Of a stretch of DNA of 64,000 nucleotides, positions 5,434 through 58,762 are shown in pieces (the stretch's first letter is position 1; each line of letters opens with the position of its first letter). Where the stretch lies: positions 294,606 to 358,605 of the forward strand of contig CAWHSF010000003.1 in NCBI GenBank assembly GCA_963832025.1, written 5' to 3'. Position numbers and translations under genes: made by a program. A model generated the notes under the pieces. That model made no database searches and was not told where the DNA came from. It saw only the letters and a program-made list of their open reading frames with translations. Source of the stretch: Candidatus Nomurabacteria bacterium (GTDB lineage: Bacteria; Patescibacteriota; Minisyncoccia; Phycocordibacterales; UBA9973).

Positions 5434-5511
5434 TTGACCCGGTAGTAGAACTTTGCGATATGTAAAATTTGCATCAAAGATGCGTCGCAAAGTCTCACTA
5501 CTGGGTTGACT
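5434..5511. repeat. repeat family C copy C1 (long hairpin TTGACCCGGTAGTAG...CTACTGGGTTGAC; 3' end = -35 box)
   Basis: ttgacccggtagtagaactttgcgatatgtaaaatttgcatcaaagatgcgtcgcaaagtctcactactgggttgact. Confidence 0.8.
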
Positions 5512-5533
5512 TTTCAATACTTTGTGCTATGAT
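5506..5533 (+). promoter_or_regulatory. promoter TTGACT-16-TATGAT; -35 box contributed by 3' end of repeat C1
   Basis: -35 5506-5511, -10 5528-5533, followed by GGAG RBS and ATG 5556. Confidence 0.5.
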
Positions 5534-5555
5534 ATTAGAGAAGGAGATTTGCACC

Positions 5556-5792
5556 ATGTCGACCCAAGCAACAAAGGAGCGGGTTGGCCCGTTCCTCTTA
5601 ATCGGTTCCCTGTTTGCGGTGCCGATAGGTCTAGCGTTCTTTTACGAGGGTTTCAAAATCCAGGGAGACACATTACTGTCCCCGTCAAAGCTGACATGCT
5701 TTGTAGCTGGCGGGCTAATGGCTCTCTTCGGCATCATCTTTTGCTGGAGACACAACAACGACGGGAGGTTGGACAATGAAAGGTGGCGCTAG
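5556..5792 (+). CDS. small 2-TM membrane protein (78 aa), paralog of following ORFs
   Basis: GGAG RBS; two hydrophobic helices; internal similarity CFVAGGLMALFGIIFCW ~ FWVPGSLLALVGGIYLLY in next ORF. Confidence 0.5.
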   Translation: MSTQATKERVGPFLLIGSLFAVPIGLAFFYEGFKIQGDTLLSPSKLTCFVAGGLMALFGIIFCWRHNNDGRLDNERWR

Positions 5793-5976
5793 GAGGGGTA
5801 CTAGTTTCAACGTGGGTGCTGCAGTTGCGGCGGTGGCGCTCGCGATGGTAGTTTTCATCCACGACGATGCCGCCAAAAGCGCCCCTGACTTTATCGTCAG
5901 ATTTTGGGTGCCTGGTAGCCTCCTAGCTCTTGTGGGAGGAATCTACCTGCTCTACCGCCTCATCGTTCACAAGTGA
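5776..5976 (+). CDS. small 2-TM membrane protein (66 aa), overlaps previous ORF, paralogous
   Basis: RBS-like aggagg; hydrophobic; terminator 5990-6036 downstream. Confidence 0.45.
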   Translation: MKGGARRGTSFNVGAAVAAVALAMVVFIHDDAAKSAPDFIVRFWVPGSLLALVGGIYLLYRLIVHK

Positions 5977-5989
5977 TCGTTTTCACAGA

Positions 5990-6036
5990 CCGGTACCTGC
6001 GCAAAGACGCGGGGCCGGTTTTCGCTTTTTATTTAA
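5990..6036 (+). terminator. intrinsic terminator (repeat D copy 1)
   Basis: accggtacctgcgcaaagacgcggggccggttttcgctttttattt. Confidence 0.55.
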
Positions 6037-6039
6037 TTT

Positions 6040-6067
6040 GACTTTCTTGGATTTTATGCTATGATCT
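6040..6067 (+). promoter_or_regulatory. promoter TTGACT-16-TATGAT (near-copy of 5506 promoter incl. gaggagat RBS)
   Basis: -35 6040-6045, -10 6062-6067. Confidence 0.5.
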
Positions 6068-6083
6068 TCTTGAGGAGATCTTT

Positions 6084-6551
6084 ATGACAACAACAAGGTT
6101 CGGAGGTTCTCTCTGCATCGGTAGAGAGGAACTTGTAATAGCTGCGGTGTTTGTTACCATGGGCTTGGCCTGCCGTGTATCGACAAAAAGCAGTCGTGAA
6201 GCTGCCACAATGGTAATTGTGGTGGGGGTAGTCGCATTGTTAGCCTTACTATGGCAGGGGGTGAGAAAGGCCATTTCCTCCATTCTTCTCCCAACGTGGC
6301 GTGTGGTACCCAGGTTCGCAATCGCTTCGTGGAAGTTTGCGAGGAAGGGTCCGCGATACTGGATTCAGATTGCGGCGGTTGGGCTAATCTTCATCGGGGC
6401 TTTTGTCCTTGTGAGGTTGGATTTCAGCAAAGGAACGTCACTGGCGACGCTCCTTTCTCAAGTGTTAGCGAGCTTCTCTATACTTATTGGAGCGGGTTCG
6501 TACGTTTATTGTATAGGAGTGTTCAAGTTTCCAAACAGGTCCCAAGAGTAA
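6084..6551 (+). CDS. 4-TM membrane protein (155 aa), looks like tandem fusion of the 2-TM unit
   Basis: gaggagatctttATG RBS; 4 hydrophobic helices; terminator 6570-6617 is a copy of the 5990-6036 terminator. Confidence 0.55.
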   Translation: MTTTRFGGSLCIGREELVIAAVFVTMGLACRVSTKSSREAATMVIVVGVVALLALLWQGVRKAISSILLPTWRVVPRFAIASWKFARKGPRYWIQIAAVGLIFIGAFVLVRLDFSKGTSLATLLSQVLASFSILIGAGSYVYCIGVFKFPNRSQE

Positions 6552-6569
6552 ATCGTTTCGTTTCAATTC

Positions 6570-6617
6570 GACCGGCACCCGCGCAAAGACGTGGGGCCGG
6601 TCTTCGCTTTTTATTTT
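6570..6617 (+). terminator. intrinsic terminator (repeat D copy 2)
   Basis: accggcacccgcgcaaagacgtggggccggtcttcgctttttatttt, ~90% identical to 5990-6036. Confidence 0.55.
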
Positions 6618-6736
6618 GAATATGCTATGTTTCTCAGTAGGATAGTTCTTTTGGAGAGCGGTCTCCTGACAGGAACTATCTCGTGTGATAACGGGCTCTA
6701 AGCGTTTAAGCGCGTCCGTTACCACACATTCCGCAA

Positions 6737-6780
6737 CCGGGAGCCAGCTGCTTTTGGCAGGCTCCCGGTCTTTTTATTTT
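6737..6780 (+). terminator. intrinsic terminator closing the island
   Basis: ccgggagccagctgcttttggcaggctcccgg + T-run. Confidence 0.6.
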
Positions 6781-6839
6781 ACGTGAAAAAATGGTTTTTT
6801 TATTTCAGCTTTTCGGAATAAGGGCAATATAAAATCTAG

Positions 6840-6868
6840 TTGACAATTTTTCCTTATTTGCTACTATG
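6840..6868 (+). promoter_or_regulatory. internal promoter TTGACA-17-TACTAT re-initiating the r-protein operon at rpsS
   Basis: -35 6840-6845, -10 6863-6868, 28 nt upstream of rpsS ATG. Confidence 0.5.
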
Positions 6869-6896
6869 AAACCAAGCTCGTAGCGAGCTTTTTATT

Positions 6897-7247
6897 ATGA
6901 CTCGAAGTATCAAAAAAGGATTAAATGTCGACGAAAAACTTCTCTCAAAGATTGTGGGCAAAAACCCGCTCGAGACACCAATGGTAAAAACTTGGAAAAG
7001 AGCCTGCGTCATTTCTCCGGAGATGCTGGGTTTTACTTTTGGTGTGCATAATGGCAAAACCCATGTGGAAGTTTTGGTGACCGAAGATATGGTCGGGCAC
7101 AGACTCGGAGAATTTTCCCCAACCAAGAAATTTATTAAACACGGAGGAAAGATGCAGAAAGAGCTTGAACAGAAGAAAAAAGAAGCGGAGATTACTGCTG
7201 CCAAAGGTGCGACAGCGGCTGCCGAAGATGCTAAGGGTAAAAAGTAG
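6897..7247 (+). CDS. rpsS: 30S ribosomal protein S19 with ~25-aa Lys/Glu/Ala-rich C-terminal extension
   Basis: RSIKKGLNVDEKLL...HNGKTHVEVLVTEDMVGHRLGEFSPTKKF S19 signature. Confidence 0.93.
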   Translation: MTRSIKKGLNVDEKLLSKIVGKNPLETPMVKTWKRACVISPEMLGFTFGVHNGKTHVEVLVTEDMVGHRLGEFSPTKKFIKHGGKMQKELEQKKKEAEITAAKGATAAAEDAKGKK

Positions 7248-7369
7248 AAATGAATCCCGTACGAAATCGCGGACGCATAAAATAAACAAAAATATGAAAA
7301 AGATAAAATATATTATAAATAACAAAAAGGACAACGAAGCGTAAGCGTACGCGTCCTATTTCGTACGGG
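7246..7369. repeat. repeat family B copy B1 (~120 bp: GC-rich palindromic ends around A/T-rich core), ends exactly at rplV ATG
   Basis: CCCGTACGAAATCGCGGACGCATAAAATAAA...AAAAGGACAACGAaGCGTAAGCGTACGCGTCCTATTTCGTACGGG. Confidence 0.85.
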
Positions 7370-7762
7370 ATGAAAGCATTTTTAAAAAATTACAGACAAT
7401 CACCCAGAAAAGTTCGCTTAGTGGCGAGTTTGGTTAAAGGAAAAAGTGTGGCACAAGCGATTGCCGAGCTTGATTTTTTAGCAAAACGTTCAGGATTACC
7501 GATTAAGAAACTTTTACTTTCTGCAGTGGCCAATGCAAAACAAATGGGCATTGAAAGTGAAAATTTATTTATCAAAGAATTACGAGTAGACAAAGGAATT
7601 GTGATGAAGAGGATGATGCCTGCAGCCATGGGTACCGGACACCGCATCAATAAACGCACCAGCCACATCAATATTCTTTTGGCTGAAAAAGTTGTTGCTG
7701 TTCCAAAAACCAAGGTTGCCAAAGTTAAAAACACAAAAACTAAAAAAGTAGCAAAAAAATAA
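7370..7762 (+). CDS. rplV: 50S ribosomal protein L22 (C-terminal K-rich tail)
   Basis: SPRKVRLVASLVKGKSVAQAIAELDF L22 signature; ATG directly abuts repeat B1. Confidence 0.93.
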   Translation: MKAFLKNYRQSPRKVRLVASLVKGKSVAQAIAELDFLAKRSGLPIKKLLLSAVANAKQMGIESENLFIKELRVDKGIVMKRMMPAAMGTGHRINKRTSHINILLAEKVVAVPKTKVAKVKNTKTKKVAKK

Positions 7763-7777
7763 TTTTACAAAAACAAC

Positions 7778-8500
7778 ATGAGTAAAATAGTTCACCCATA
7801 TGCGCATAGATTGATAATATTAAGAGACTGGAAATCTCGCTGGTTTGCCGACCCTAAAAAATACGTGGCTTACTTGAAGGGTGATGTTTTGATTCGTGAA
7901 TATTTGACCAAGAAATTACGTGGAATGTATATTTCCACAATTGAAATCGAGAGAAGTAGAAAAGCTACTCGTTTCATTATCAAGACTTCTCGTCCGGGTA
8001 TGATTATTGGCCGAAACGGTGAAGGGGTAACAAAACTCAAGGAAGATATCTTGAAAAAGATGGACAAGTTGGGTATTCCAAAACCGGAAGACTTCAAACT
8101 GGAAATTGTGGAAATTACCAATCCCGAAGCCGATGCCGCAATCGTTGCTTACATGATTGCCGAAGGTTTGGAGAAGAGAATGCCTTATCGTCGCGTTATC
8201 AAACAAATTATTGAGAAAGTTATGCAAGCGCACGGAGTGGAAGGTGCGAGAATCGTGCTTTCGGGCCGTTTGGGTGGAGCGGAAATTGCCCGCACGGAAG
8301 AATTGAAGCGCGGAAGTGTTCCACTTCAAAGTTTCCGCGCGGATATCGATTTCAAACGTGAACGTGCAACGCTTTCTTATGGAGTTGTCGGTATCAAGGT
8401 TTGGATTTATCGCGGTAAAATTTTTGCTGACAAAAAACCTGCTCGTGGCATGGATGGCGGAGACGGAAGCTCATTAGAAAATAAAAATAAGACGGATTAA
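7778..8500 (+). CDS. rpsC: 30S ribosomal protein S3
   Basis: KIVHPYAHRLIILRDWKSRWFA...KH domain GMIIGRNGEGV. Confidence 0.95.
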   Translation: MSKIVHPYAHRLIILRDWKSRWFADPKKYVAYLKGDVLIREYLTKKLRGMYISTIEIERSRKATRFIIKTSRPGMIIGRNGEGVTKLKEDILKKMDKLGIPKPEDFKLEIVEITNPEADAAIVAYMIAEGLEKRMPYRRVIKQIIEKVMQAHGVEGARIVLSGRLGGAEIARTEELKRGSVPLQSFRADIDFKRERATLSYGVVGIKVWIYRGKIFADKKPARGMDGGDGSSLENKNKTD

Positions 8501-8503
8501 TAT

Positions 8504-8935
8504 ATGGCATTAGTACCGAAAAAAGTAAAATTTAGAAAATGGCAAACTGGGCGGAACAATCCGAAGTCCAGAAATCCAGAAACTCGTGGCACCAAGCTTG
8601 CTTTCGGTTCTTTCGGTTTAAAATCTGAAACTCAAGCGCGAGTAAAATCAAATCAACTTGAATCCGCTCGAAAAGTAATTTCGCGCACTTTAACTAAGAC
8701 CGGTAAATATTGGATTCGTGTGTTTCCGGACCGTCCTTATACCGCTAAGGCCGCAGAAGTAGGCATGGGAAAGGGAAAAGGAGACCCGCAAGGATATTGC
8801 TTTGATGTTCTTCCGGGTAGAATTATTTTTGAAGTGGATGGAGCGGAAGAAAAAGTTGCTCGCGAAGCGCTCCGAAAAGCAGGAACAAAACTTCCTGTTA
8901 AAACCAGAATTATTTCACGAGCTCACAAGCAATAA
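8504..8935 (+). CDS. rplP: 50S ribosomal protein L16
   Basis: MALVPKKVKFRKWQTGRN...GMGKGKGDPQGYCFDVLPGRIIFEV. Confidence 0.95.
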   Translation: MALVPKKVKFRKWQTGRNNPKSRNPETRGTKLAFGSFGLKSETQARVKSNQLESARKVISRTLTKTGKYWIRVFPDRPYTAKAAEVGMGKGKGDPQGYCFDVLPGRIIFEVDGAEEKVAREALRKAGTKLPVKTRIISRAHKQ

Positions 8936-8944
8936 ATTATACCT

Positions 8945-8972
8945 GTCCCGTACTAAATTTTTGATTACGGGG
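8945..8972. repeat. mini family-B-like hairpin (rplP-rpmC spacer)
   Basis: TCCCGTACtaaatttttgatTACGGGG. Confidence 0.45.
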
Positions 8973-9012
8973 CATAAAGATAAAGATTATTAATTAAAAT
9001 TTTAGTACTGGG

Positions 9013-9225
9013 ATGGTCAAAACAAGCAAAAACACAAAAAAAAGTTTTAAAGAAATGCCCGACACAGAGCTTAAAAAAGAGTTGGTTGTTTTGAAGGAAA
9101 ATTTACGAGTAATACATTTTAAATCTGAAGGTTCAAGACCAAAAAATGTTAAAGAAGCCACAACCTTAAAAAAACAAATTGCCCGCATCATGACGGAATT
9201 AAACAATAAAAAAGTAATAAAGTAA
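9013..9225 (+). CDS. rpmC: 50S ribosomal protein L29
   Basis: [21 protein letters not shown]29-like; synteny. Confidence 0.88.
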
Positions 9226-9229
9226 TTAT

Positions 9230-9541
9230 ATGAAAACAGACAAAGAACAAGAAAAAAAACCTGCCCGCAATACTTTCAGCATAGCTGATGCAGGCGGGGA
9301 AGATGAAGCCAAAGGCAAATTCCTAAAAGGAGTGGTTACTTCCGACAAGATGGATAAAACTGTCGTGGTTTCTGTTTCTCGTTTTGTGAAGCATCCTCTT
9401 TATGGAAAATTTTACAAAGTCAGCAAGAAATACAAAGCGCACGATGAAGGCAATATATATAAAACAGGCGATAAGGTAGAAATCATGGAAACCAAGCCGA
9501 TTTCTAAAGACAAAAGATTTAAAGTAATTTCCAAAGAATAA
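9230..9541 (+). CDS. rpsQ: 30S ribosomal protein S17
   Basis: [28 protein letters not shown]17 signature. Confidence 0.93.
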
Positions 9542-9546
9542 TTTTT

Positions 9547-9918
9547 ATGATTCAAAATGAAACTTTAGTAAAAATAACAGATAATGCCGGAGGCACCGTG
9601 GGAAAGGTGTTCAAAATTTTAGGCTCTTCAAAAAAGAGATATGCTACCCTTGGGGAAGTGGTAATCATCTCCGTTAAAGTGGCGAGCCCTCGAAAGGCGG
9701 TAAAAAAGAAAGATGTTCATCAAGCTGTTGTAGTACGCACTCGTGGAGCTTATCGCCGAAAAGACGGTTCATATATTCGTTTTGATGATAACGCTGTTGT
9801 GATTTTGGAAAAAGGTAAAAAAGATCCAAAGGCAGGTCGTGTTTTCGGACCGATTCCGAGAGAGTTGGCAGAAAAAGGTTTTCAAAAAATAATTTCGTTG
9901 GCGCAGGAAGTAATATAA
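9547..9918 (+). CDS. rplN: 50S ribosomal protein L14
   Basis: MIQNETLVKITDNAGG...VVVRTRGAYRRKDGSYIRFDDNA. Confidence 0.95.
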   Translation: MIQNETLVKITDNAGGTVGKVFKILGSSKKRYATLGEVVIISVKVASPRKAVKKKDVHQAVVVRTRGAYRRKDGSYIRFDDNAVVILEKGKKDPKAGRVFGPIPRELAEKGFQKIISLAQEVI

Positions 9919-9924
9919 TAAGAA

Positions 9925-9965
9925 CAGACGTTGGATATCTGCTAAAGCAGGTGTCCAACGTCTCC
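9925..9965. repeat. palindromic repeat family A, copy A4 (rplN-rplX spacer)
   Basis: CAGACGTTGGATATCTGCTAAAGCAGGTGTCCAACGTCTCC. Confidence 0.8.
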
Positions 9966-10233: not shown

Positions 10234-10806
10234 ATGGCAACAAAACATTTAACCGTAAAAAACAAAGAACAAGAGGCATTTGAAAAAATGAAAAGTATGT
10301 TTCATTATAAAAATGCTATGGCTGCGCCAAAACTAAAAAAGGTTGTTGTAAATACTGGCACTGGCACACCGATGAAAAAAGATAAAAACAAAAATACTTC
10401 TATCGCGGAACGTTTAGCAAAAATTACCGGACAAAAAGGAGCACTCCGAGGCGCAAAACAATCCATTTCATCTTTCAAGGTTCGCCAAGGTGACCCAATC
10501 GGTATCGTGGTTACTATCCGTGGAAAGAGAATGTATGCATTCTTGGAAAAACTTATAAATGTGGCTATCCCTCGCACAAAAGATTTCAGAGGAATCAATC
10601 GCACCGCTGTGGACAATATCGGCAACCTGACTATCGGCATCAAAGAACACACCATCTTCCCGGAAACAGCCGATGAAGATATTCGCGATGTATTTGGCAT
10701 GTCTATCACTTTGGTTTCCACCGCAAAAAATAAAAAAGAAGGTACCGCATTTTTTGAAATTCTAGGTATTCCTTTCAAGAAGGAAGAAGTGATTAAGAAA
10801 AAATAG
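10234..10806 (+). CDS. rplE: 50S ribosomal protein L5
   Basis: RQGDPIGIVVTIRGKRMYAFLEKLINVAIPRTKDFRG L5 signature. Confidence 0.95.
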   Translation: MATKHLTVKNKEQEAFEKMKSMFHYKNAMAAPKLKKVVVNTGTGTPMKKDKNKNTSIAERLAKITGQKGALRGAKQSISSFKVRQGDPIGIVVTIRGKRMYAFLEKLINVAIPRTKDFRGINRTAVDNIGNLTIGIKEHTIFPETADEDIRDVFGMSITLVSTAKNKKEGTAFFEILGIPFKKEEVIKKK

Positions 10807-10887
10807 GGTTTGACCCGGGTAGTGAATTTTGGCGAAGCGCAAAGCGCAATAATAAATTATCGCCAAAATCTACTACCGGGTTTGACT
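10806..10887. repeat. repeat family C copy C2 (rplE-rpsN spacer)
   Basis: gggtttgacccgggtagtgaattttggcgaagcgcaaagcgcaat...atcgccaaaatctactaccgggtttgact. Confidence 0.8.
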
Positions 10888-10910
10888 AATTTCTATAAAC
10901 CTGCTAGTAT
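10882..10910 (+). promoter_or_regulatory. promoter TTGACT-17-TAGTAT; -35 box is 3' end of repeat C2
   Basis: -35 10882-10887, -10 10905-10910 upstream of rpsN. Confidence 0.4.
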
Positions 10911-11025
10911 CACAGCAAGGGAATAGGGCTTTGCTTAATCCATTTTTCTCCTCCGACGCTCTAAAGGGTTAGAGGTTCGGAGAAAAAAAATGAGATATTG
11001 GTAGAGTAACCCCGATAAATTATTT

Positions 11026-12263: not shown

Positions 12264-12304
12264 CCAGATGTTGGACATCCGCAGAGCGGGTGCACAACAT
12301 CTGA
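12264..12304. repeat. palindromic repeat family A, variant copy A5 (rplF-rplR spacer)
   Basis: CCAGATGTTGGACATCCGCagagCGGGTGCACAACATCTG. Confidence 0.6.
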
Positions 12305-18339: not shown

Positions 18340-20442
18340 TTGATGGAACCATCCTTTTTTAAGGAAATGCCGAAGTTTAAGACTCCCGAGGAGGAGCTCG
18401 ATTATTTGCGCGCGCATGTGAAAGCACGTGAAGAAGAATTAATCAGCATTGGGCACATAGAAAATGCAGGAGACAATGCCGCCTCCGAAGTTATCGGCGC
18501 ATATAAAAATATACCGGCAGAGAAACTAATTCATAAAGATAATATTATAAAAGAAAAAGAAGCCAAAGGTATCGTTTTGGCTCTGCGCCCGGAGACTCAC
18601 GACAGTGTGATGGAGGAACTTTTGGGGATTGTAGTTACTAAAGGAGTTCGCAATGCTCTTTCGGTGGCAGAAGAGATGGATAATCCCCATATTGATGATG
18701 ATTTTCACAGAATTCTCATTCAATATTTAAAAACCGGACAAACCATGTTGGATTTTAAAGAAGGCTCGCCGGTTTACAAAGCTCTCAATATGACTCTTTT
18801 TGAAATTACGCTTCCGCCTCCGGCTGAAGGAGGAGATGCAGCGAAAGGTTTTAAAGAATTTATCGGCGCGATGGAACAATTTTACGCCGGCATGCAATCT
18901 ATCGGCGAAGGTAAGTATAACGAAAAAGAAAACTATTTTGTTTTGGAGGTGGGGCTTGGGATGAATACCGACGAGGTAGTGGTTTATGCGGCAATTCCAA
19001 ACAAACATCTATCTCTTTTTGAAAAACAAATCTTGGCTTTTTATCACAATGCAAAGATTCGTGAAGCGACTGACGACTACAATGTTTTCAACGAAAATGG
19101 CAATTCTGTCGGTGCTTATGCTGTCCTTTCTGAGCGTGGAGTGATGCCGATAAAAACCTATGACAATATTGACCATGACCCGATGAATCCGATTTTAAAT
19201 GTTTTTTCTCAATTAAAAACGATCGGCGAAGGTGCCGCGATTCAATTGGTGGTTGTGCCAGCCGGTGAAAAGTTTATCAATGAGTTTCATATGATTCTGG
19301 ACGATGTGAAAGATGGTTATTCGGTCAAACATGCATCCGATAATTTTTATAAGTTCAACAAAGCCTTTTTGAAAGTGGGCAAAGATTTTGTTTTTGGACA
19401 TAAAGAGAAAGAAGAAGAGCCCAAAGAAAAATATATGAAAGGCAGACGCGCGGTAGATGAGGGCGCGGCGGAAAAAATCGGCAACAAAATAAAAAGCACA
19501 ATCATGAAAGCTAATATTCGCGTGGTTGCCTCCGGGCAAACGCTCGAACGTGCCGAAGCTATTTTGCGCGAGATAGAATCTTCCTTCAATCAATTTTCGG
19601 AAGCAGCTAGCAACTCTTTTGTTTTTGAACAAATGAGAGGCAGTGAACTGAAACAACTCTTTCACGATTTTTCTTTTCGTACATTTAAGCCTGATAAGAC
19701 GTTGCCGTTAAATTTAAAAGAATTATCTTCAGTCTTTCATTTCCCAGTAGGTATTGATAGTCAACCACAATTGAAAGAAGCGAAAGCCGGTATCGCTCCG
19801 GCTCCGATAGAGATGGGGCAAACGGGAATTATACTCGGAATAAACAGCTATCGGGGCAGAGATACGGAAATTCACTTGGCGAGAGAAGACCGCATGAGAC
19901 ATTTTTATGTTATCGGTCAGACAGGTACAGGTAAAACGAATATCATGCTCAACATGATTACGCAAGATATAAAAAATGGAGATGGTTGCTGTTATATTGA
20001 CCCGCACGGTACCGATATTCAAACAATTCTTTCTCGTATACCTAAAGAGCGTATTGACGATGTGATTTATTTTGACCCAGCCTATACTGCACGACCGATG
20101 GGGCTTAACATGTTGGAATATGACCCGAGATATCCCGAACAGAAAACATTCGTGGTAAACGAAATGATGGGAATTTTCAATAAACTTTTTGATATGAAAG
20201 TGGGCGGTGGAGCGATGTTTGAACAATATTTTAGAAACAGCGCCTTTCTTGGTGATGGAAGACCCGGAATCCGGCTCAACCTTGCTGGAAATTACCCGTG
20301 TCTTGGCCGACAAAGAATTTCGCGATATGAAACTTGCCCGATGCAAGAACCCAATCATCAAACAATTTTGGATTTCTGCCGAGCAAACAACCGGAGACCA
20401 GTCGCTCGCGAACTTCGTGCCTTATATTTCTTCCAAGTTTGA
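18340..20442 (+). pseudogene. P-loop ATPase of VirB4/TraD/HerA-FtsK (AAA_10/DUF87-like) class with ~450-aa N-terminal domain; N-terminal ORF fragment of a gene interrupted by two compensating 1-nt frameshifts (~20228 +1, ~20446-20479 -1)
   Basis: Walker A HFYVIGQTGTGKTN, YIDPHGT, FDP motifs; true continuation is in frame 2 (20207-20479) then frame 1 (20467-21111). Confidence 0.7.
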
Positions 20443-20466
20443 TAACTTTATTTCAGTAACGATATT

Positions 20467-21111
20467 ATGCGTCCGGTAGTGCTTCAACAAAACTCCGTTT
20501 TCAATTTTAGAAAAATCATGGACGAGAAAAAAATTCTTTTAGTTAATCTTTCCAAAGGAAGATTGGGAGATATTAACGCAAACCTTATCGGTTTGGTATT
20601 GGTCGGCAAGATTCAAATGGCGGCGCTTTCCCGCGTGGATATGTTTGGTAAACCAATGAATGATTTTTATCTATATATCGATGAGTTCCAAAATGTCACC
20701 ACTGATTCCATCGCTTCCATTTTGTCTGAAGCAAGAAAATACAGACTCTCGTTAAATATTGCGCATCAATATATCACTCAACTCGAAGATAATATCAAGA
20801 ATGCTGTCTTTGGGAATGTCGGCTCGATGGCTGTTTTCCGTGTCGGCACCGAAGATGCGACATTTTTGGAACCAAAATTTAAACCGCAATTTACTGCGCA
20901 AGATATAACCAAGCTTGATAATTACAATGCTTATGTAAATATGCTGGTAAATGGTCAGCCAACCAAACCTTTCAATTTAAAAACTCTCGCGCCAGAGGTA
21001 GGCAATGCGGAAATCGTGGATAGTCTAAAAGAACTTTCTTATGTAAAATTTGGTCGTGACCGCGCCGAAGTCGAAGCCGAAATCATGGCGCGATATAGTA
21101 CGATGGAATAA
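20467..21111 (+). pseudogene. C-terminal fragment of the same ATPase (Walker B YIDEFQN region)
   Basis: LYIDEFQNVTTDSIASIL...LNIAHQYITQLED; contiguous with 18340-20442 after frame correction. Confidence 0.7.
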
Positions 21112-25551: not shown

Positions 25552-25648
25552 TTACAAAAAGGATAGAACATTTTAGGGCACAGATATTTTTTTGCTAAAA
25601 AATTCTTCCTGCTCGCGCCGTTGCACTGCGCAAGTCCCTAAAATGTTC
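25546..25648. repeat. 23-bp perfect inverted repeat AAAAAGGATAGAACATTTTAGGG / CCCTAAAATGTTCTATCCTTTTT around 56-nt spacer
   Basis: Read directly; overlaps stop of RNase J-like gene; no T-run. Confidence 0.6.
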
Positions 25649-25705
25649 TATCCTTTTTGCTGCAATTTTGTTGTCCGACAAGGATGTTTATGCTACACTA
25701 ACGAA

Positions 25706-26324: not shown

Positions 26325-26384
26325 AAATCAAATAAACAACATAAAGAAAAATCCCCTAGATGGGGATTTTTCTTTATGTTGTTT

Positions 26385-26726
26385 ATTTAGCTGCTGCTAC
26401 GACTTTTGCAAATGTTTTTGGATGATGTTCGGCAAAGTCGGAAAGAATTTTTCTGTCCAGCATTATGTTTTTCTTATGTAAACCATCGATTAACTTGGAG
26501 TATGATATTCCGAGTTCTCTGGCACCAGCATTTATTTTAATATTCCAAAGTTTGCGATTATGTGATTTCTTGTCTCTGCGATGCGCGAAAGAATAACTCC
26601 GGCATGCAAGAGCGCGTCTTTTGCCTGACGTTCCTTGGTACTGCGTCCATGGCGCATTCCCTTAGTTTGCTTCAAAACACTTCTCCTTCTTTTTAATGCA
26701 TGTACTCCTTTTTTTACTCTGGTCAT
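26385..26726 (-). CDS. rplT: 50S ribosomal protein L20, reading frame broken by -1 frameshift near 26597 (GGAAG->GGAG)
   Basis: MTRVKKGVHALKRRRSVLKQTKG then frame 3 SYSFAHRRDKKSHNRKLWNIKINAGARELGISYSKLIDGL matches L20 throughout. Confidence 0.85.
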
Positions 26727-31178: not shown

Positions 31179-31252
31179 CCGTCCTTAGCTCAGCTGGTTA
31201 GAGCACAGAGCTTATACCTCTGGGGTCCTTGGTTCGAATCCAAGAGGACGGA
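31179..31252 (+). tRNA. tRNA with anticodon UAU (Ile2-type AUA decoder), C1:G72 acceptor end
   Basis: Cloverleaf: acceptor CCGUCCU/AGGACGG, D GCUC/GAGC, anticodon stem CAGAG/CUCUG loop CUUAUAC, T CUUGG-UUCGAAU-CCAAG. Confidence 0.75.
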
Positions 31253-31267
31253 CAAGCAAATAAATTT

Positions 31268-39192: not shown

Positions 39193-39263
39193 CCTCCAGA
39201 CGTTGGATTGACGTTGGACACCCGCCAAAGGCGGATGTCCAACGTCTGGAGGTTTATCCACAA
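39193..39263. repeat. palindromic repeat family A, extended copy A6
   Basis: CCTCCAGACGTTGGAttgacgTTGGACACCCGCCaaaGGCGGATGTCCAACGTCTGGAGGTTTATCCAC. Confidence 0.8.
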
Positions 39264-39277
39264 GTAAATTTAAAGTG

Positions 39278-39364
39278 CGGAGAGAGAGGGATTCGAACCC
39301 TCGGTCCTTTTAAGGGGACGACAGTTTAGTAAACTGTTGGTTTAAACCACTCACCCATCTCTCC
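39278..39364 (-). tRNA. type-II (long variable arm) tRNA, Ser-like, anticodon loop UUACUAA (apparent ACU anticodon, atypical)
   Basis: rc: GGAGAGA-UG-GGU..ACC-A-ACAGU-UUACUAA-ACUGU-long arm-CGAGGGUUCGAAUCCCUC-UCUCUCC-G. Confidence 0.6.
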
Positions 39365-48870: not shown

Positions 48871-49701
48871 TTAATTACTATTCAGTAAAGATTCTTTGTT
48901 TTTTCCTAAAAATGATTCTATCGCTTCGGAGATTTCTTTGAAATTGTTGCGTGCGGAATCATGAGTGGCATTTGGAATGATGACTATTTCTGCACCTCCT
49001 ATTTTTTCTTTTAAGCGTAAGACATTCTTGACCGGCACCATTCCATCTTTTTCTCCGTGAATTATTAGGGTCGGTATGTGAACGTTTTGTAAATTATATT
49101 CTTGTTCCTTTTCGAAGGAATGTCGGAGGGTGTACATATGCGCTCGGAGTCCGGTATTGCTTATATCTGCCCAATTACGCCCTAAATCCCACTCGGACAC
49201 ATTTATGTATTTTGAATAATCTACATGTCCACGCGGTTTTGGATTCCAGGGTAGGATCGATACGATTTTTGTGATGAGCCAAAAAATCGGCCTAATTATT
49301 TTCGCCGTGGGTTCCTCGTTTAAAAATATTTCCGGTGAAGTCATTATATTTCCGAGCAGAACGTCTTGATGTTTCTCTATATATTTTAACGCTATGAGTT
49401 CTCCAAAAGAATTTGTGATTAAAATAAATTTTTTAATTTGCAGATATTTTACCAGCTCCTCCAAATCGTTCGAAAAATTTCCTATTTCGTAGTCGGAATA
49501 ATTTGGATATTTTTTTGACATTCCGTGTCCACGAATATCATATAATAAAATATTATATTTATTTTCAAATATTGGTTCGTAGTTTAGCCAAGCAGAACAA
49601 GACCCAGAAACTCCATGCACAAATACCAGAGTCAGTCTGCCTGGGACAAACTCATTGGTCCGGTAGTAGATTCTTTTGTTGTCTAAATAATATTCTTTCA
49701 T
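48871..49701 (-). CDS. alpha/beta-fold hydrolase
   Basis: FVHGVSGS, ITNSFG (GxSxG), HG..D..H triad. Confidence 0.75.
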   Translation of the reverse strand: MKEYYLDNKRIYYRTNEFVPGRLTLVFVHGVSGSCSAWLNYEPIFENKYNILLYDIRGHGMSKKYPNYSDYEIGNFSNDLEELVKYLQIKKFILITNSFGELIALKYIEKHQDVLLGNIMTSPEIFLNEEPTAKIIRPIFWLITKIVSILPWNPKPRGHVDYSKYINVSEWDLGRNWADISNTGLRAHMYTLRHSFEKEQEYNLQNVHIPTLIIHGEKDGMVPVKNVLRLKEKIGGAEIVIIPNATHDSARNNFKEISEAIESFLGKNKESLLNSN

Positions 49702-50954
49702 TTTCCTAATGCATTATGGTAAACTTCCTCTAGTTTTTTTACACTCTCGTGTATATCATATTTTTGAACCATCTTGAAGCTAACCTCACCCATCCTCTCT
49801 CTCAATTCTTTGTCTTGAATTAATTTCAAAGTTTGCTCGGCTAGGTCTTTAGGATCCAAGGTTTTAAACAAAAATCCGTTGCCATTCACAAAATAACGGG
49901 AAGCGCTCATTTTTGTATCGGAAATAATAATCGGTTTTCCACAAGCCATCGCTTCAAGCACCACCATACCTTCCAGTTCCGCGAGCGACGGCAAAATAAA
50001 AATATCGCAGGCATTAAAAGCCAAGATTTTATCTTCTTCACTGACCAATCCTAAAAAGGTGATATGTTTTCGCATTTTTAGATTGTCCACTAATTTTTCT
50101 AATTTATTTCGCAAGATTCCACCGCCCGCAATCATTAGATACACATTAGGATTTACTTTGAGTATCTCTGGTATTGCTTTGATGAGTGTATCCACGGATT
50201 TTTCCGGGAACAGACGCCCGACGAAAAGCAATTTTATTTTATCTTTCGGTATTTCAAATCTTTCGTAAAAATTTCCAATTGGAAATTTCTGAAAATGTTT
50301 CAAATTTATTCCATTGCTGATGACAATCGATGGCTGGTCACGCTTGTTTAATTTATGTAGCAGATTTTTTGCCATTTCGGAGGGATAGATTATTATTTCT
50401 GCTTTACTGTAAACCCACATCAGATATTTGTTCCATAAGCTAAATAAAATGGGCTGAATAATATGGGGGGTGTCGGCAAATAAATTTTCCGGTTGCGAGT
50501 GCGAATGCGCCACGATTTTTATATGAAGTGCTCGCGCTGCTTTGATGGCGACAACCGCTCCCGACATTGGCAGAATAATATGCACGATGTTTATTTTTTC
50601 TTCCAGAAAAACTTTTTTTAATTCATTCACTGTCGGAAAGGCTAAATGCCAGCCGTTTGATTTAGGAATAGGAATACTGCGATAATGATAAAGCCTGATG
50701 CCATCGTAATAATCGTTGTTCGCGTGTTCCTTAGAGGTTGCTCCGACAAAAATGACATGATGTCCTTGTTCTTTTAATAATTTGGAAAATCGCAAAATAG
50801 ACACAAGCACTCCGGCTTTGTCTCCGCCAATCGGGTCGCAAATCATCGCGATATTCAATTTCCCGGTAGTAGATTTTTGCAATGCAAGTTTACTTGCGCG
50901 CTCTGCGCTTTGCGAAAACTCACTACCGGGTTTTCCTCTTTTTTCTTCAGGCAT
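49698..50954 (-). CDS. GT4-family glycosyltransferase
   Basis: EGMVVLEAMACGKPIIISD (EX7E motif), two Rossmann halves. Confidence 0.85.
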   Translation of the reverse strand: MPEEKRGKPGSEFSQSAERASKLALQKSTTGKLNIAMICDPIGGDKAGVLVSILRFSKLLKEQGHHVIFVGATSKEHANNDYYDGIRLYHYRSIPIPKSNGWHLAFPTVNELKKVFLEEKINIVHIILPMSGAVVAIKAARALHIKIVAHSHSQPENLFADTPHIIQPILFSLWNKYLMWVYSKAEIIIYPSEMAKNLLHKLNKRDQPSIVISNGINLKHFQKFPIGNFYERFEIPKDKIKLLFVGRLFPEKSVDTLIKAIPEILKVNPNVYLMIAGGGILRNKLEKLVDNLKMRKHITFLGLVSEEDKILAFNACDIFILPSLAELEGMVVLEAMACGKPIIISDTKMSASRYFVNGNGFLFKTLDPKDLAEQTLKLIQDKELRERMGEVSFKMVQKYDIHESVKKLEEVYHNALGK

Positions 50955-50955: not shown

Positions 50956-51537
50956 TTATTTTTGATCGTTGGGCGGAACTGTTCGCATATTAAATTTATA
51001 TTTTCGTAAAAAGATGACTACGAGAAAAATCAAAGCGAGAACACTGACAAATGCCGCGTAATAATTCAAATATTTGCCGATTACCACGTAAGCATGTCCG
51101 AATAAAATTCCCAACATCAACATGACAAATGATTGGATGACGGAAATCGTCGCGCATGTCTTGAAATATTTTTTATACGGCACACGGATGGCGCCGGCGG
51201 CGACTAGTCCGGTAAAGCCGATGCCGTGTACGAGTTTGCTCATGGCGATGGCTTTTTTGTGATTGTCTCGAAAATATAATTTTGCTTTTTCCAGCTTCTC
51301 GTCCGTGACCTTGAAATATTTTAAAAATCTTTTCCCCGAATAACCCATGTAATAAATCAATCCATCACCGACGATGTCACCCAAAACCATGACAACATAG
51401 ACTAAAAACGGATTGAAAAATTTCAATGTCACCAAAAATCCGCAAATGACCGTAACGATTGGTCCTTCAATAATAGACAAGGGGATTAGAATAATATATT
51501 TATAGGTCAACAACAGTTGAATCATATATGAGAACAT
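50956..51537 (-). CDS. DedA/SNARE-associated family membrane protein
   Basis: 193 aa, VLGDIVGDGLIYYMG, DedA topology. Confidence 0.8.
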   Translation of the reverse strand: MFSYMIQLLLTYKYIILIPLSIIEGPIVTVICGFLVTLKFFNPFLVYVVMVLGDIVGDGLIYYMGYSGKRFLKYFKVTDEKLEKAKLYFRDNHKKAIAMSKLVHGIGFTGLVAAGAIRVPYKKYFKTCATISVIQSFVMLMLGILFGHAYVVIGKYLNYYAAFVSVLALIFLVVIFLRKYKFNMRTVPPNDQK

Positions 51538-55052: not shown

Positions 55053-55129
55053 GGAAGCCGGAATAACGTCGGAGTTATACACAATTTGCTTCTTTAAAAG
55101 TTGCTTTTGTTATATAATATTGGAGTAGA

Positions 55130-55732
55130 ATGGATCAAAACTTTCAAACATCATTTATACCCAAGAAGCCAATCTTAGAAGAGCGTGCTGTTTCATCTGC
55201 GCCTGTTAGTATTTTTTTTATTGCTTCTCTCTTTATTTTGTTTGTTGTCCTGTTGGGAACAGGAGGGCTTTATTTTTATAAAACAAGGGTGATAAATAAT
55301 CTCAATGTTTTACAATCGAGTCTTACTAGCGCCCAAAACAATTTTGAACCTTCCGAACTCACACAGTTGCAGACTTTAGACAAACGTTTAAAAGCAGCGT
55401 CAGAAATTTTATCCAACCACATAACGATTACTCCTGTTTTCAATGAGCTGGAGCAGATAACCATGCATACTGTTCGCTTTACTAAATTTAGTTACGATGT
55501 AAGTTCAGACTCAACTGCAGATGTAGACATTAAAATGTCTGGTGTTGCTATCGGTTACCGTTCTGTCGCACTTCAGTCGGACTTATTAGCGCAAGATAAA
55601 AATTTCATTAACCCGGTTTTTTCCAATCTAACGCTTGATAACAGTGGCAATGTCCTTTTTGACTTGGAGTTTTCGGTTCCGGCATCTTTTGTGAATTATA
55701 AACAGTCACTTTTAGCAACAACCACCAATTAA
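55130..55732 (+). CDS. pilN: PilN-like bitopic protein
   Basis: single N-terminal TM then periplasmic domain; synteny. Confidence 0.65.
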   Translation: MDQNFQTSFIPKKPILEERAVSSAPVSIFFIASLFILFVVLLGTGGLYFYKTRVINNLNVLQSSLTSAQNNFEPSELTQLQTLDKRLKAASEILSNHITITPVFNELEQITMHTVRFTKFSYDVSSDSTADVDIKMSGVAIGYRSVALQSDLLAQDKNFINPVFSNLTLDNSGNVLFDLEFSVPASFVNYKQSLLATTTN

Positions 55733-55736
55733 TTTT

Positions 55737-56375
55737 ATGATGAGATATATTATGCCAATCATTTTAATAGGAATTGCCATAACATTCTTTTTCATGGTGA
55801 CGAATCCGCTCTACAACAATGATTCGACGACCAATCCCGGTGTTGTTCAATTAGAATCGCAGGTTGCATCTTATAATAATGCGCTTAGTACTTCTAAAAC
55901 CTTGGAAAGTGAAAGAGATGCGTTAACTCAAAAATACAACAGTATTGACCCAAATAATTTAGCTGAATTACAAAAACTTTTACCGGACAATGTAAACAAC
56001 GTCCGTTTAATTCTAGAAATAGAACAGATAGCTGCGCCTTTTAATATGACTTTAACTAATATCAAATATGACAGCAATGCAGCTTCGTCAGCTACTGGCA
56101 CTACCGCTGCGCCGGTAGTGCAGGGAGGAAATGCTACAGTCAATTCGAATCAAGATTATGGCACTTTTAATTTAGAATTTTCCACATCTGGAACTTACGA
56201 TAATTTTATAAATTTCACCAAAGATTTAGAAAGTAATTTTAGAATTGTAGATATCTCTTCCATTTCATTTTCATCCGACACCTCTGCGGGCGGTGGAGGA
56301 GTCGCAGTTAAAGCTGGCGCTCCCGAAGTGTACACTTATGATTTTAAGATTCAAACTTATTGGTTAAAGAGTTAA
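55737..56375 (+). CDS. pilO: PilO-like protein
   Basis: N-terminal TM, coiled-coil; synteny. Confidence 0.65.
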   Translation: MMRYIMPIILIGIAITFFFMVTNPLYNNDSTTNPGVVQLESQVASYNNALSTSKTLESERDALTQKYNSIDPNNLAELQKLLPDNVNNVRLILEIEQIAAPFNMTLTNIKYDSNAASSATGTTAAPVVQGGNATVNSNQDYGTFNLEFSTSGTYDNFINFTKDLESNFRIVDISSISFSSDTSAGGGGVAVKAGAPEVYTYDFKIQTYWLKS

Positions 56376-56382
56376 CAAACAC

Positions 56383-56873
56383 ATGCCAAAAATTAGAAAC
56401 ATTTTAATATTTGTAGCAATCGCAGCGGTGCTTGTTTTTGCTTACATATTTTTTGCCAAACCACCATCTGCTGAACAAACTAACTTAGTGTCTTCTTCTG
56501 GGACTACAGCATCGGGTGGGCAAGCTCCAACGTAGGCACAAATACGGCAAACGGTAGTGATACTTCCGCTGTTGCCAGCAATTTTCTAACGTTGCTTTTA
56601 AGTGTAAAAACTATTCAATTAAATACGGATATTTTTTCTGATCCAGCCTTTACTAGTTTACACGATTCAAGCATTGTTCTTGTGCCAGATGCGACGACAG
56701 GCAGACCGGATCCATTTGCACAATTTGGAGTAGGAGACACGACACCCACGTCCTCCACAACGGGAACCGTCAATCCACCCACCACAGCGTCAACAGGTTC
56801 TACGGCTTCAAATACTTCTACGCCAATTCAAATGCCAGTTGTGCCACCTGCTCCGTCAGCCACTAAGTCATAA
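56383..56873 (+). pseudogene. bitopic Thr/Ser/Pro-rich protein (PilP-like?) split by 1-nt frameshift near 56530
   Basis: MPKIRNILIFVAIAAVLVF...GGQAPT* then frame 0 continues GTNTANGSDTSAVASNF... Confidence 0.45.
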
Positions 56874-56962
56874 TTAGATACGAGTCCCGTTAGAAATAAC
56901 GAAAACTTCTCAAGTAGGTTATAATAAATGAGTATTAATAATTAATATAAATTTCTAACGGG

Positions 56963-58706
56963 ATGAGTTTTTTAGAAGAATTAGCCAAAAAGGGTTTAAT
57001 AAATGGAAACCAAATAGGTGAAATTAAAAATCGCGCAAACGAAGATTTTGGTGGCGATATCGAGAAAACACTCATCGAATCCGGTGTTCCAGAAGAAAAA
57101 ATTCTTGAAACAAAAGGAGAATATTTGGGGTTGCCGGTCAAGCAAATAAATCTTCAAGGAATGTCTTTTGATGTATTGAAATATATTTCCGAAGATTCTG
57201 CTTCACATTATAATTTTGTGCCGATAGAGTTAAGAGATGGAGTGCTAGAAGTTGGAGTGATAGACCCGGAGAACATCCAAGCGATGGATGCTCTGCAATT
57301 TATTTCCAATAAAATAGGTATTCCTTTTAAAATTTTTCTTATTTCGAGGAGTGATTACGACAGTGTCATGCAGAGTTATAAAGGCTCGGCAGTCAAGTGG
57401 AGGAATCTTTAAAAGAAATAAAACAAGAAGAAAATGAAGACGTGAAAGGTGTGAACGAAGAGAGTCTTAGCAAGGAAATTAAAAATATAAAAACAAAAGA
57501 GGAGGCAAAAATTACTGAAGCTGCGCCAGTTATAAAAATTGTTGCGGTTATTTTGCGTAATGCTCTAGAAGGAGGTGCTTCGGATATACATATTGAATAT
57601 AATGGTGAAAAAGTAAAAGTGCGTTTTCGTGTGGATGGTATATTGCACACCTCTATCGTTTTACCATCAAATGTTTACAATGGAATCGTTGCTCGTATAA
57701 AAATTTTATCCAAACTTAGATTGGACGAAAAACGCAAACCGCAAGATGGTTCTTTCAGTGCCAACATTGATGATAGAAAAATTGATTTTCGTGTTTCCAC
57801 CATGCCGGCATATTATGGCGAGAAGATCGTGATGCGTATTTTGGATTCCGAAAAAGGTGTTAAACCACTGACCGAACTCGGTCTTTCCAAAGTAAATTTA
57901 GAAATTATAGAAGAGGCAATTAAAAAACCATACGGATTGATTTTGATTACTGGTCCGACCGGTTCCGGAAAATCCACTACACTTTATTCCATGATGAATG
58001 CGTTTAGATAAAGAAAAAAGTAATATCGTGTCGTTGGAAGACCCAATAGAATACCATATGTCGGACATCAACCAATCTCAAATGATGCCGGAAATTGGAT
58101 ATACTTTTGCTTCTGGACTTCGTTCAATTTTGCGTCAGGATCCGGATGTGATAATGGTGGGAGAGATCCGTGATAAAGAAACAGCTCAACTTGCCATTCA
58201 AGCAGCTTTGACCGGACACTTGGTGCTTTCCACTTTGCACACCAACTCTGCTGTCGGAGCTATTCCTCGCTTGGTGGATATGGGAGTTGACCCATACTTG
58301 ATTGCCCCAACGTTGATTGTTTCTATCGCGCAACGTCTCGCGAGACTTACTTGTCCATCGTCGAGAAAACTCATGCCGATGGATCCAACTATAAAAATTC
58401 AGATTGAAAAACAAATGGAAGATTTACCGGAACAATTTAAACCAGCAATCAGTAATGAAATGTATGACACGGTTCCATCCGGTGAATGTCCTTCCGGTAC
58501 GCGAGGTCGTATCGCAGTATTTGAAATGTTTAAAGTTGATAAAGAAATGCAAGGCAGTGATTTTAAAAAGTCCTGTGAACGGTGAAATTTACAAACTAGC
58601 TCGCAGTAAGGGAATGTTGATGATGAGAGAAGATGCAATGCTAAAATCATTACAGGGAATTATTCCTTTTACCGAAGTTTATAACTTTAACAACGAAAAT
58701 GAATAG
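56963..58706 (+). pseudogene. pilB: type IV pilus assembly ATPase PilB/GspE, fragmented into 4 ORFs by >=3 single-nt frameshifts (~57395, ~58000, ~58545)
   Basis: T2SSE_N domain, LILITGPTGSGKSTTLYSMM Walker [37 protein letters not shown] zinc motif; junctions in short homopolymers. Confidence 0.8.
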
Positions 58707-58721
58707 TGTATAATTAATTTC

Positions 58722-58762
58722 CCTATAGTAGAACTTTGTAAAAGTTTCACTACGGGGTATAA
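58722..58762. repeat. mini family-C hairpin upstream of response-regulator gene
   Basis: ccctatagtagaactttgtaaaagtttcactacgggg (same TAGTAGAACTTTG...CACTAC arms). Confidence 0.55.

Follow-up and report, generated by a model that had tools for sequence, protein, structure and literature searches.

The stretch of DNA analysed here, a 64,000-nt window of contig CAWHSF010000003.1 from Candidatus Nomurabacteria (coordinates below are positions in this window), carries a short palindromic repeat, family C, in three full-length copies (C1, C2 and C4) and one 37-bp mini copy (C3). C1 (68 bp, 5438-5505, + strand, CCCGGTAGTAGA-ACTTTGCGA...TCGCAAAGT-C-TCACTACTGGG) lies among small open reading frames (ORFs), two of which were tested and had no Pfam match, in a block (approximately 4300-7360) that interrupts the ribosomal-protein gene cluster and that also contains repeated terminator-plus-promoter units (GYGGGGCCGGTYTTCGC-TTTTTATTT at 6009-6025 and 6591-6607). 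The same 4-mer, TTGA, stands on both sides of C1 (5434-5437 and 5506-5509), its right copy being the first four bases of the -35 hexamer TTGACT (5506-5511) of a promoter-like host site, TTGACT-16-(TG)TATGAT (5506-5533, + strand), which abuts the element, lies outside it, and is upstream of an ORF for a 78-aa membrane protein (ATG 5556). C2 (67 bp, 10814-10880, - strand) is located between the stop codon of rplE (10804-10806) and the promoter of rpsN, genes identified by Pfam as encoding L5 and S14, and is flanked by TTTGA (10809-10813 and 10881-10885), of which the right copy overlaps the -35 hexamer TTGACT (10882-10887) of the ancestral rpsN promoter-like site TTGACT-17-(TG)TAGTAT (10882-10910, + strand), a host sequence conserved in relatives without the element.

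C4 (69 bp, 50862-50930, + strand, opposite to the genes) was found by an inverted-repeat scan. It lies after the stop of a VTT/DedA gene (50956-51537, - strand) and inside the open frame of a GT4 glycosyltransferase ORF (49698-50954, - strand; neighbours identified by Pfam), with TTT on both sides (50859-50861 and 50931-50933). These 69 + 3 = 72 nt leave the GT4 frame open and encode residues 9-32, so that C4 may be an in-frame gene insertion. C3 (58721-58757, + strand) has a degenerate 5' arm (CCCTATAGTAGA) and lacks the interior domain; it lies between TATAAT at 58709-58714 and TATAAT at 58758-58763, 14 nt before the ATG (58772) of a response-regulator gene (Pfam Response_reg) and after a type II/IV secretion ATPase fragment. 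The pilus ATPase region adjoining C3 (57397-58706 and 59360-60062) consists of several short overlapping ORFs, and the only one tested there (57998-58585) matches positions 166-328 of the 370-position T2SSE profile, which suggests frameshifts or pseudogenes. The initial annotation of this DNA, made from the sequence alone, had recognised long imperfect palindromes at C1, C2 and C3, as folding and a covariance model bear out, and had correctly placed TATAAT directly after C3 and upstream of the response-regulator gene, but it had missed C4 and had included flanking host sequence in the elements: the TTGAC that it took for an inverted-repeat terminus is a direct repeat on both sides (TTGA for C1, TTTGA for C2).

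Oriented by its internal asymmetry, the element has the overall form CCCGGTAGTAGA...TCACTACCGGG, with 5' arm CCCGGTAGTAGA and 3' arm TCACTACNGGG. An outer stem of 11 bp and fixed sequence (5' CCCGGTAGT-A-GA / TC-ACTACCGGG 3', with one bulged A and with GTAG at positions 5-8, inside the stem) is followed by an inner stem of approximately 9 bp, free in sequence and always paired (ACTTTGCGA/TCGCAAAGT, TTTTGGCGA/TCGCCAAAA, TTTTTGCAA/TTGCGAAAA), and by a variable tip that usually forms one or two small GC hairpins. Elements range from 37 to 81 bp and have no ORF of their own. As single strands, C1, C2 and C4 fold at -30 to -38 kcal/mol (with z between -5.5 and -7.3 relative to dinucleotide shuffles; -36.7 kcal/mol and z -7.3 for C1), in agreement with the strong hairpin first proposed, and C3 has a z of about -3.2 to -3.8. 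A covariance model built from unrelated copies scores the three long copies at 62-70 bits (E ~1e-17 to 1e-20), C4 being the top match in the window (70.1 bits), and C3 at 32.3 bits (E ~1e-7). The model distinguishes the strands: C1 scores 62.3 bits on the + strand versus 41.1 on the -, C2 scores 62.3 bits on the - strand versus 36.3 on the +, and for every copy the score in the element orientation exceeds that of the reverse by approximately 20 bits, so the internal asymmetry is a consistent feature. That C1 and C2 are opposite in orientation is likewise shown by the bulged A, which belongs to the 5' arm, and by a small GC hairpin, which falls in the 3' half of the loop.

A scan of one genome per bacterial or archaeal species with the exact pattern CCCGGTAGTAGA-N35-60-TCACTACNNGG found at least 118 loci. 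The copy counts given below (n = 124, 123 or 88) rest on the matches listed from these loci. Among the matches listed, 116 of 118 are in genomes labelled as, or recognisable as, Patescibacteria or candidate phyla radiation (CPR), including Saccharibacteria, Kazan, Doudna-, Moran-, Nomura-, Nealson-, Lipton-, Yanofsky-, Portnoy- and Wildermuthbacteria. One locus labelled Vicinamibacterales (L088) is GC-rich and matches by chance, with nothing in common beyond the arms that the pattern demands, and a bona fide copy on a 6-kb contig binned as Binatia (L059) probably reflects a binning error. The family is not private to the genome of the window but is spread across the whole CPR radiation. The covariance model recovered approximately 20 further copies beyond the exact pattern; in 336 kb of unselected DNA of relatives it found one full copy and one mini copy. 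The density is low and patchy; the window, where 64 kb hold four copies, is rich by comparison. One locus (L038, approximately 7555-7729) has a tandem array of at least four mini copies of 34 nt (CCCnGTAGTAGAACGCTTnGCGTTCACTACAGGG) with the same 12-13-nt spacer and a period of 46-47 nt.

The predicted structure (11 outer pairs, bulged A10, one unpaired pyrimidine opposite, and 9 inner pairs) was tested on an alignment of 88 copies. Paired cells amount to 94.3%, versus 30-47% when partners are slid by 1-3 columns; double-sided changes occur at nine of the nine inner-stem pairs (263 cells); and the covariation score is 0.354, versus 0.086 in shuffles. The outer stem and bulged A are invariant in these copies by construction of the search pattern and carry no information on covariation. 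Pairing is maintained along the full length of the hairpin by compensatory change. Mismatches on the element strand are more often G-T than A-C (33:16), which weakly suggests that it is this strand that folds.

The family does not correspond to anything catalogued in the resources consulted. Rfam 15 at gathering score gave only a tmRNA and two tRNAs in the window and no family for the element, and with copies searched at E up to 10 it returned only generic miRNA-hairpin noise; a known RNA family was rejected on these results. The same pattern had no match in 2.9 million viral contigs, and a phage origin was rejected. Searches of the literature for CPR together with MITE, REP, palindrome or target duplication (terms explained below), or for the arm sequence, found no description, and Patescibacteria go unmentioned in a survey from 2024 that covered the prokaryotic MITEs of 183,232 genomes. 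A DNA uptake sequence was rejected: the arms never occur singly above chance, and there is one full copy in the 336 kb of relatives' DNA. An integron attC site was also rejected, RYYYAAC/GTTRRRY cores being absent and the flanks being direct, variable 4-mers, and no guide-like link of the flanking 4-mer with the inner-stem sequence was seen by eye.

Direct repeats of at least 4 bp abut both ends in 74 of 124 copies (exactly 4 bp in 58), whereas in shuffled pairings of left and right flanks only about 10 of 124 reach even 3 bp; after removal of look-alike flanks the fraction with at least 4 bp is 44 of 88. The duplicated 4-mers fit YNNR (TTGA 13, TCAA 12, CATA 8, CAAG 6, and others such as TATA). 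Near-identical members of the C1 subfamily occur at different sites in other genomes (L036, L051, L104, L147), neighbouring copies are often only 4-5 nt apart (L021, L027, L030, L092), and some genomes have doublets, two inverted hairpins bracketed by one duplication (L015). Filled and empty sites could be compared at the position of C2 with the help of 80 metagenomic relatives, whose L5 is 66-90% identical to that of the window and of which 47 have a scorable rplE-rpsN spacer; an exact-protein look-up of the window's S14, made for sister strains, gave no record. In 44 of the 47 the element is absent, and the empty spacers (the short ones, and the promoter-proximal end of the long ones) consist of the stop codon, 1-30 nt, a single TTGACT-N17-(TG)CTAGTAT, a leader and rpsN. 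Empty sites read ...TAG-(A/G)nTTTGACT once; the site in the window reads TAG-GGTTTGA-[C2]-TTTGACT-N17-TAGTAT, which is the empty site plus 67 inserted bp with TTTGA duplicated (alignment A4). The same rpsN -35 box is occupied by a copy of the C1-type subfamily in L147 and by a third type in the orthologous pair L056/L001, so that three independent insertions have probably hit one promoter box. The element inserts with a 4-bp target duplication, and the first description of it as a mobile, short, non-coding inverted-repeat element is upheld by the flanking duplications and by the filled and empty rplE-rpsN sites. Family C is probably a non-autonomous mobile DNA hairpin, similar to MITEs (miniature transposable elements with inverted repeats) and repetitive extragenic palindromes (REPs), that inserts at the edges of promoter boxes throughout the CPR.

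The enzyme responsible would act in trans. All-against-all clustering of 1,232 ORFs from 8-kb pieces of the at least 118 loci gave no recurrent transposase-like cluster near copies, and the clusters obtained were all of a housekeeping kind (GTPase factors, tRNA synthetases, ribosomal proteins, DnaA); a Pfam scan of 26 ORFs (20 in the window and 6 at other loci) detected no transposase; and no pairs of arms at a spacing of 0.3-3 kb were found in 0.9 Mb, unpaired arms being about as numerous as the chance matches estimated. The fixed outer stem may be the recognition site of an enzyme that is not encoded beside the copies, and the inner stem may be kept paired by selection or by the transposition mechanism itself, with the element handled as a folded single strand or a cruciform. 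A DDE enzyme supplied in trans would be compatible with duplications of fixed length and with the random orientation; the bulged base, internal GTAG, doublets, link between 4-mer and subfamily, and absence of a linked gene fit a single-strand route of the REP/RAYT or IS200/IS605 kind.

A possible though not favoured alternative is that the same element is moved as single-stranded DNA by an HUH/tyrosine enzyme, in the style of REPs and their RAYT transposases or of the insertion sequences (IS) IS200/IS605, the apparent duplication being the target plus a carried 3' tetranucleotide. The extra-helical base (invariant by the search pattern) and the internal GTAG recall such elements, as do the excess of G-T over A-C mismatches on the element strand, the flanking 4-mer that follows the subfamily (CATA with an orientation of 8:1), and REPIN-like doublets in which both outer ends are 5'-type arms (L015, L071). 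The lack of a transposase in or beside the copies would also be as in REPs served by one distant RAYT (PMC3733652). On the other side, GTAG is within the stem rather than terminal, and the 60-80 bp of family C exceed the 20-40 bp of REPs (PMC3733652). TTGA and TCAA, the two orientations of a TTGA target, are equally frequent within one subfamily. Palindromic elements derived from IS200/IS605 are expected to insert 3' of a fixed tetra- or pentanucleotide with no true duplication and to have a strand bias, whereas copies of family C show no bias relative to co-directional neighbour genes (29 same, 25 opposite). No RAYT-like cluster was found among the ORFs of the 8-kb pieces, no search having been aimed at RAYT.

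Several points weigh against the reading of family C as a MITE/REP-like mobile hairpin. Approximately 40% of copies have no clean 4-bp repeat, some of these being doublets with the repeat around the pair (L015). Subfamily and flanking 4-mer are correlated (CATA going with the AAATTCGAC subfamily), which a simple staggered cut by a DDE enzyme does not predict, and a 3' tetranucleotide of the IS200/IS605 kind could mimic a duplication. The compensation in the inner stem and the exact outer stem across a radiation exceed what a purely selfish, decaying MITE would show, which is a possible sign of a function at the level of the host or of a host enzyme that is highly conserved. The searches described turned up neither an autonomous partner nor a transposase, so that transposition is deduced from its footprints. 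Copies from related species are not all independent, and the counts overstate the number of events; the breadth of the family comes from an exact outer-stem pattern, and variation in the stem (for example, the sister hairpin at 8947-9012, described below) is under-sampled.

As a statistical pattern, the junctions of copies coincide with the beginning of -35 boxes, -10 boxes, start codons and perfect DnaA boxes much more frequently than expected by chance. An outward-facing TTGAC abuts 30 of 123 copies, 15 at each arm, and in 22 of these 30 a TAnnnT follows 16-18 nt beyond, versus 12% of all TTGAC in the same DNA. Distances from the junction to a -10-like hexamer, pooled over both flanks, form two sharp peaks, one of 15 flanks at 0 nt and one of 43 flanks at 22-24 nt, whereas the background is approximately 4 per position. 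Eight of the 32 perfect DnaA boxes (TTATCCACA) in 0.97 Mb start exactly at a junction, and a ninth is 3 nt away; these junction-linked boxes have several unrelated flanking contexts. Ten copies abut the T/ATG of real genes (uvrB twice, dnaB, ileS, an ABC ATPase and others; the slash marks the junction) with a -10-like box 6-8 nt upstream of the duplicated ATG, which suggests that these genes are leaderless. The two copies at a uvrB start codon, with duplication TATG, are in different genomes (L034 and L108) and are either a shared old insertion or two hits. Whatever the class, the motif begins with the 3-4 bases that are duplicated, and the intact motif stays on the outer side (TTGA/C for -35, TATA/AT for -10, T/ATG, and TTA/TCCACA for the DnaA box), so the host signal remains intact because the duplicated bases rebuild it there. 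This pattern may reflect target choice, the survival of harmless insertions, or both; the excess of TTGA and TCAA (25 of 58 duplications) and the three hits on one rpsN box argue for a real sequence preference.

A more tentative extension of target choice is that family C is a radiation-wide hairpin transposon that chooses targets by the footprints of host DNA-binding proteins (sigma factor on -35 and -10 boxes, a leaderless start, DnaA), inserting at the upstream edge of the bound motif and rebuilding it by the 4-bp duplication. It would then be either a transposon whose evolution has made it harmless to genomes in which hardly any DNA is spare, or a carrier that sets a conserved protein-binding arm beside promoters and replication-origin boxes throughout the CPR. 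Its mobility would depend on an enzyme encoded by a CPR gene that is conserved and unlinked and that is so far unrecognised as a transposase gene.

It is doubtful that family C is instead a mobile regulatory module, whose outer stem would be the binding site of a CPR-conserved protein and which would be retained where this site falls by a -35 box (centred near -41.5), a -10 box or a DnaA box, and which would rewire the initiation of transcription or replication instead of being neutral. Many CPR lineages have one and the same outer stem around a variable interior, although this identity is imposed by the search pattern. Either orientation presents the same arm sequence at the same distance from the promoter, the junctions coincide with the edges of protein-bound motifs, and the covariation of the inner stem suggests a constraint beyond transposition. 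There is, however, no candidate protein; many copies are far from any recognisable motif, and some are in frame in genes or in convergent gaps; and the same rpsN promoter is present in relatives that lack the element.

The initial annotation considered family C a promoter-carrying MITE, whose terminal GGGTTGACT supplies an outward-facing -35 box and so creates promoters downstream. The promoter-like hexamers on which this was founded are present, TTGACT-16-TATGAT at C1 and TTGACT-17-TAGTAT at C2, each with an upstream TG. The association of copies with promoters is non-random, the same geometry recurring in 22 foreign copies, and there is precedent in the Correia elements of Neisseria (PMC2649163). 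Donation of the -35 box is nevertheless very unlikely. At C2 it is refuted by the complete and single TTGACT-N17-TAGTAT already present in the empty rplE-rpsN sites; at C1 it is unlikely in view of a near-identical unit (T-rich tail, TTGACT-16-TGCTATGAT, GGAGAT, ATG) that has no element and whose TTGACT-16-TATGAT, at 6038-6065, follows the terminator unit at 6009-6025. TTGAC lies outside the conserved element, most copies having other 4-mers in its place (TTGA, TCAA, CATA, CAAG and TATA all occur as the four adjacent bases), and it is found at either arm equally (15:15), as expected of a duplicated target. Sequence internal to the element stands at the -35 position only in C3 (TTGTAA-16-TATAAT, weak) and in L098 (TTGACC-16-TATAAT), where it could be due to chance; among the copies that abut a -10 box these are also the only candidates for an element-supplied -35, L098 and, weakly, C3. 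The causality is thus reversed: the element inserts into -35 boxes, and the alignment with relatives places C2 on a promoter that existed before it, as C1 probably also does without being part of that alignment.

Only 18% of copies are inside called ORFs, which cover 85% of bases in the loci; most of these ORFs are over-extensions, and about 5% of copies are inside real genes. At least five are genuine in-frame insertions, in each of which the length of the element plus 4 is divisible by three: in the N-domain of a P-type ATPase (L099), an RseP/M50 protease (L016), FemAB (L037), a Wzy_C-TPR protein (L065) and a PMT-type glycosyltransferase (L074). Other copies are in convergent gene gaps. Most copies may be neutral passengers, with a stable hairpin in neighbouring transcripts, or 23-26 extra residues in proteins when in frame, as a side effect. 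That family C is a structured non-coding or cis-regulatory RNA (a terminator, an RNase III site or a protein-binding leader) and not mobile is less likely still than donation of a promoter: the strong covariation and stable folds, and the copies right after stop codons (C2) or right before start codons, would suit such an RNA, but both gene orientations are equally frequent (29:25), which argues against a strand-specific role, many copies are upstream of a -35 box and therefore outside the downstream transcript, the flanking duplications and empty sites show insertion, and neither a U-tail nor an Rfam match is present. An intrinsic terminator in particular was rejected, C1 and C2 being followed by TTGAC with no T-run and neither being called by a terminator scan; a T-rich tail is found only at C4, on the + strand, antisense to the genes. 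An origin as fold-back chimeras at contig joins, for which the palindromic form and nothing more would speak, has a negligible probability given copies in mid-contig at 118 or more loci, in many independent assemblies made by different assemblers, with conserved anatomy and intact flanking genes; the copies are not confined to head-to-head positions at contig joins.

By definition, MITEs measure 50-800 bp, end in inverted repeats of 10 bp or more, are flanked by a 2-10-bp duplication, lack an ORF and occur in multiple copies, most of which are intergenic (PMC11602168). Like ERIC, RUP and MITEAba12, family C fits in its size, inverted ends (11 paired bases), 4-bp duplication and lack of an ORF, and departs from the definition of a MITE only in that a parent IS with the same ends was not found. 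The usual MITEs are tied to an IS and restricted to a genus or family, whereas the ends of family C are identical across many CPR lineages and its whole length is kept paired by compensatory change. The Correia elements (CREE/NEMIS) of Neisseria are non-coding inverted repeats of approximately 100-155 bp with a target duplication and hundreds of mostly intergenic copies, associated with promoters and forming RNA hairpins (PMC2649163, PMC10969869), and family C is likewise a promoter-associated hairpin repeat with a target duplication. Correia elements duplicate TA and carry promoter hexamers in their own ends (PMC2649163), whereas family C has a 4-bp YNNR duplication, a -35 that is ancestral target sequence, and no sequence similarity to them; the former occupy one genus, the latter a radiation.

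With the REP/REPIN-RAYT systems family C shares an imperfect palindrome, an extra-helical base, GTAG, the lack of an adjacent transposase, and the occurrence of singlets and inverted doublets. We know of no report of flanking duplications at REPs. These are 20-40-bp palindromes with GTAG at one terminus, and the source that lists the phyla with GTAG repeats does not include CPR among them and does not mention flanking duplications (PMC3733652). REPs have occasional copies inside genes, among them genes of replication and repair (PMC3733652); the corresponding genes for family C are uvrB, dnaB and ileS. Family C differs in being about twice as large, with GTAG four bases into the stem and a 4-bp flanking repeat. 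The tolerance of in-frame insertion into genes (the five above and possibly the GT4 gene of the window) resembles that of Rickettsia palindromic elements (RPEs), although only about 5% of family C copies are in real genes. RPEs are palindromic repeats of a reduced genome that can lie in frame in genes and be translated; to our knowledge, targeting of promoter hexamers by RPEs has not been reported. RPEs are mentioned in the two sources on such repeats (PMC10969869, PMC3733652) and terminate in CGTC (PMC3733652). Family C is apparently an undescribed, CPR-wide family of MITE/REP-like hairpins with an unusual choice of target, distinguished by ends identical across a radiation, full-length maintenance of the hairpin by compensatory change, and junctions at the first base of promoter and DnaA boxes.

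CPR/Patescibacteria have tightly packed genomes of approximately 1 Mb, with a reputation for containing little mobile DNA. A small parasite or domesticated module has persisted in, or spread across, the radiation as a whole (Saccharibacteria, Kazan, Doudnabacteria and many Paceibacteria). Its copies offer a free map of promoters and origin boxes in mostly unculturable organisms, because the junctions mark -35 and -10 boxes, leaderless starts and DnaA boxes. For annotation, copies extend ORFs, split operons and add approximately 24 residues to proteins, and the covariance model can flag them. A consensus promoter beside a repeat is no proof that the repeat brought the promoter, since a target duplication gives the same picture.

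The rplE-rpsN spot is a recurrent landing place for foreign DNA. Its spacer is 0.7-2.4 kb long in L120, L124, L128, L130, L141, L144-L147, L153, L156, L162, L180, L189, L192, L196 and L197, and many of these long spacers have a terminator-like hairpin at the start and an apparent extra small gene. Between the rpsN promoter and ATG, the window has a conserved leader of approximately 115 nt (10911-11025; aagggaata...ttaatccnnTTTTCTCC-hairpin-GGAGAAAAAAAgtgagatatt), common to most relatives with a scorable spacer and without an Rfam match, which is a candidate ribosomal-protein leader. The sister hairpin family (tacYtgtCCCGTWnnAAAT...ATTTnnWACnGGG/ATG) is represented in the window at 8947-9012, where it ends exactly at the start of rpmC (L29; ATG 9014) and scores 26.8 bits with the family C model. 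Hairpins of this type lie between the rpsN leader and the rpsN ATG in L123, L127, L130, L174, L178 and L182 and are absent from others (for example, L134); the sister hairpin also looks like an insertion, and its stem appears to pair with the start codon.

Two further kinds of palindrome in the window are unrelated to family C. A second family (GACGTTGGACAYCTGCT / AGCAGRTGTCCAACGTC; arms of 17-18 bp, loops of 2-3 nt) occurs at 3961-3996, 4732-4767, 9926-9963, 12265-12303 and 39210-39246, in or by the ribosomal-protein cluster and by a tRNA-Ser gene, and there are a perfect 27-bp inverted repeat with a 5-nt loop (26330-26388) and a perfect 24-bp one with a 57-nt spacer (25555-25659). Elsewhere in the window, two adjacent ORFs of 699 and 214 aa (18343-21111) have weak matches to conjugative coupling proteins, all near or below the Pfam cut-offs except TraG-D_C, and may be a split VirD4-like gene. 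ARAGORN predicts a tRNA-Ile with anticodon TAT (31179-31253) and a tRNA-Ser with anticodon ACT (39277-39364), both of which are unusual anticodons.

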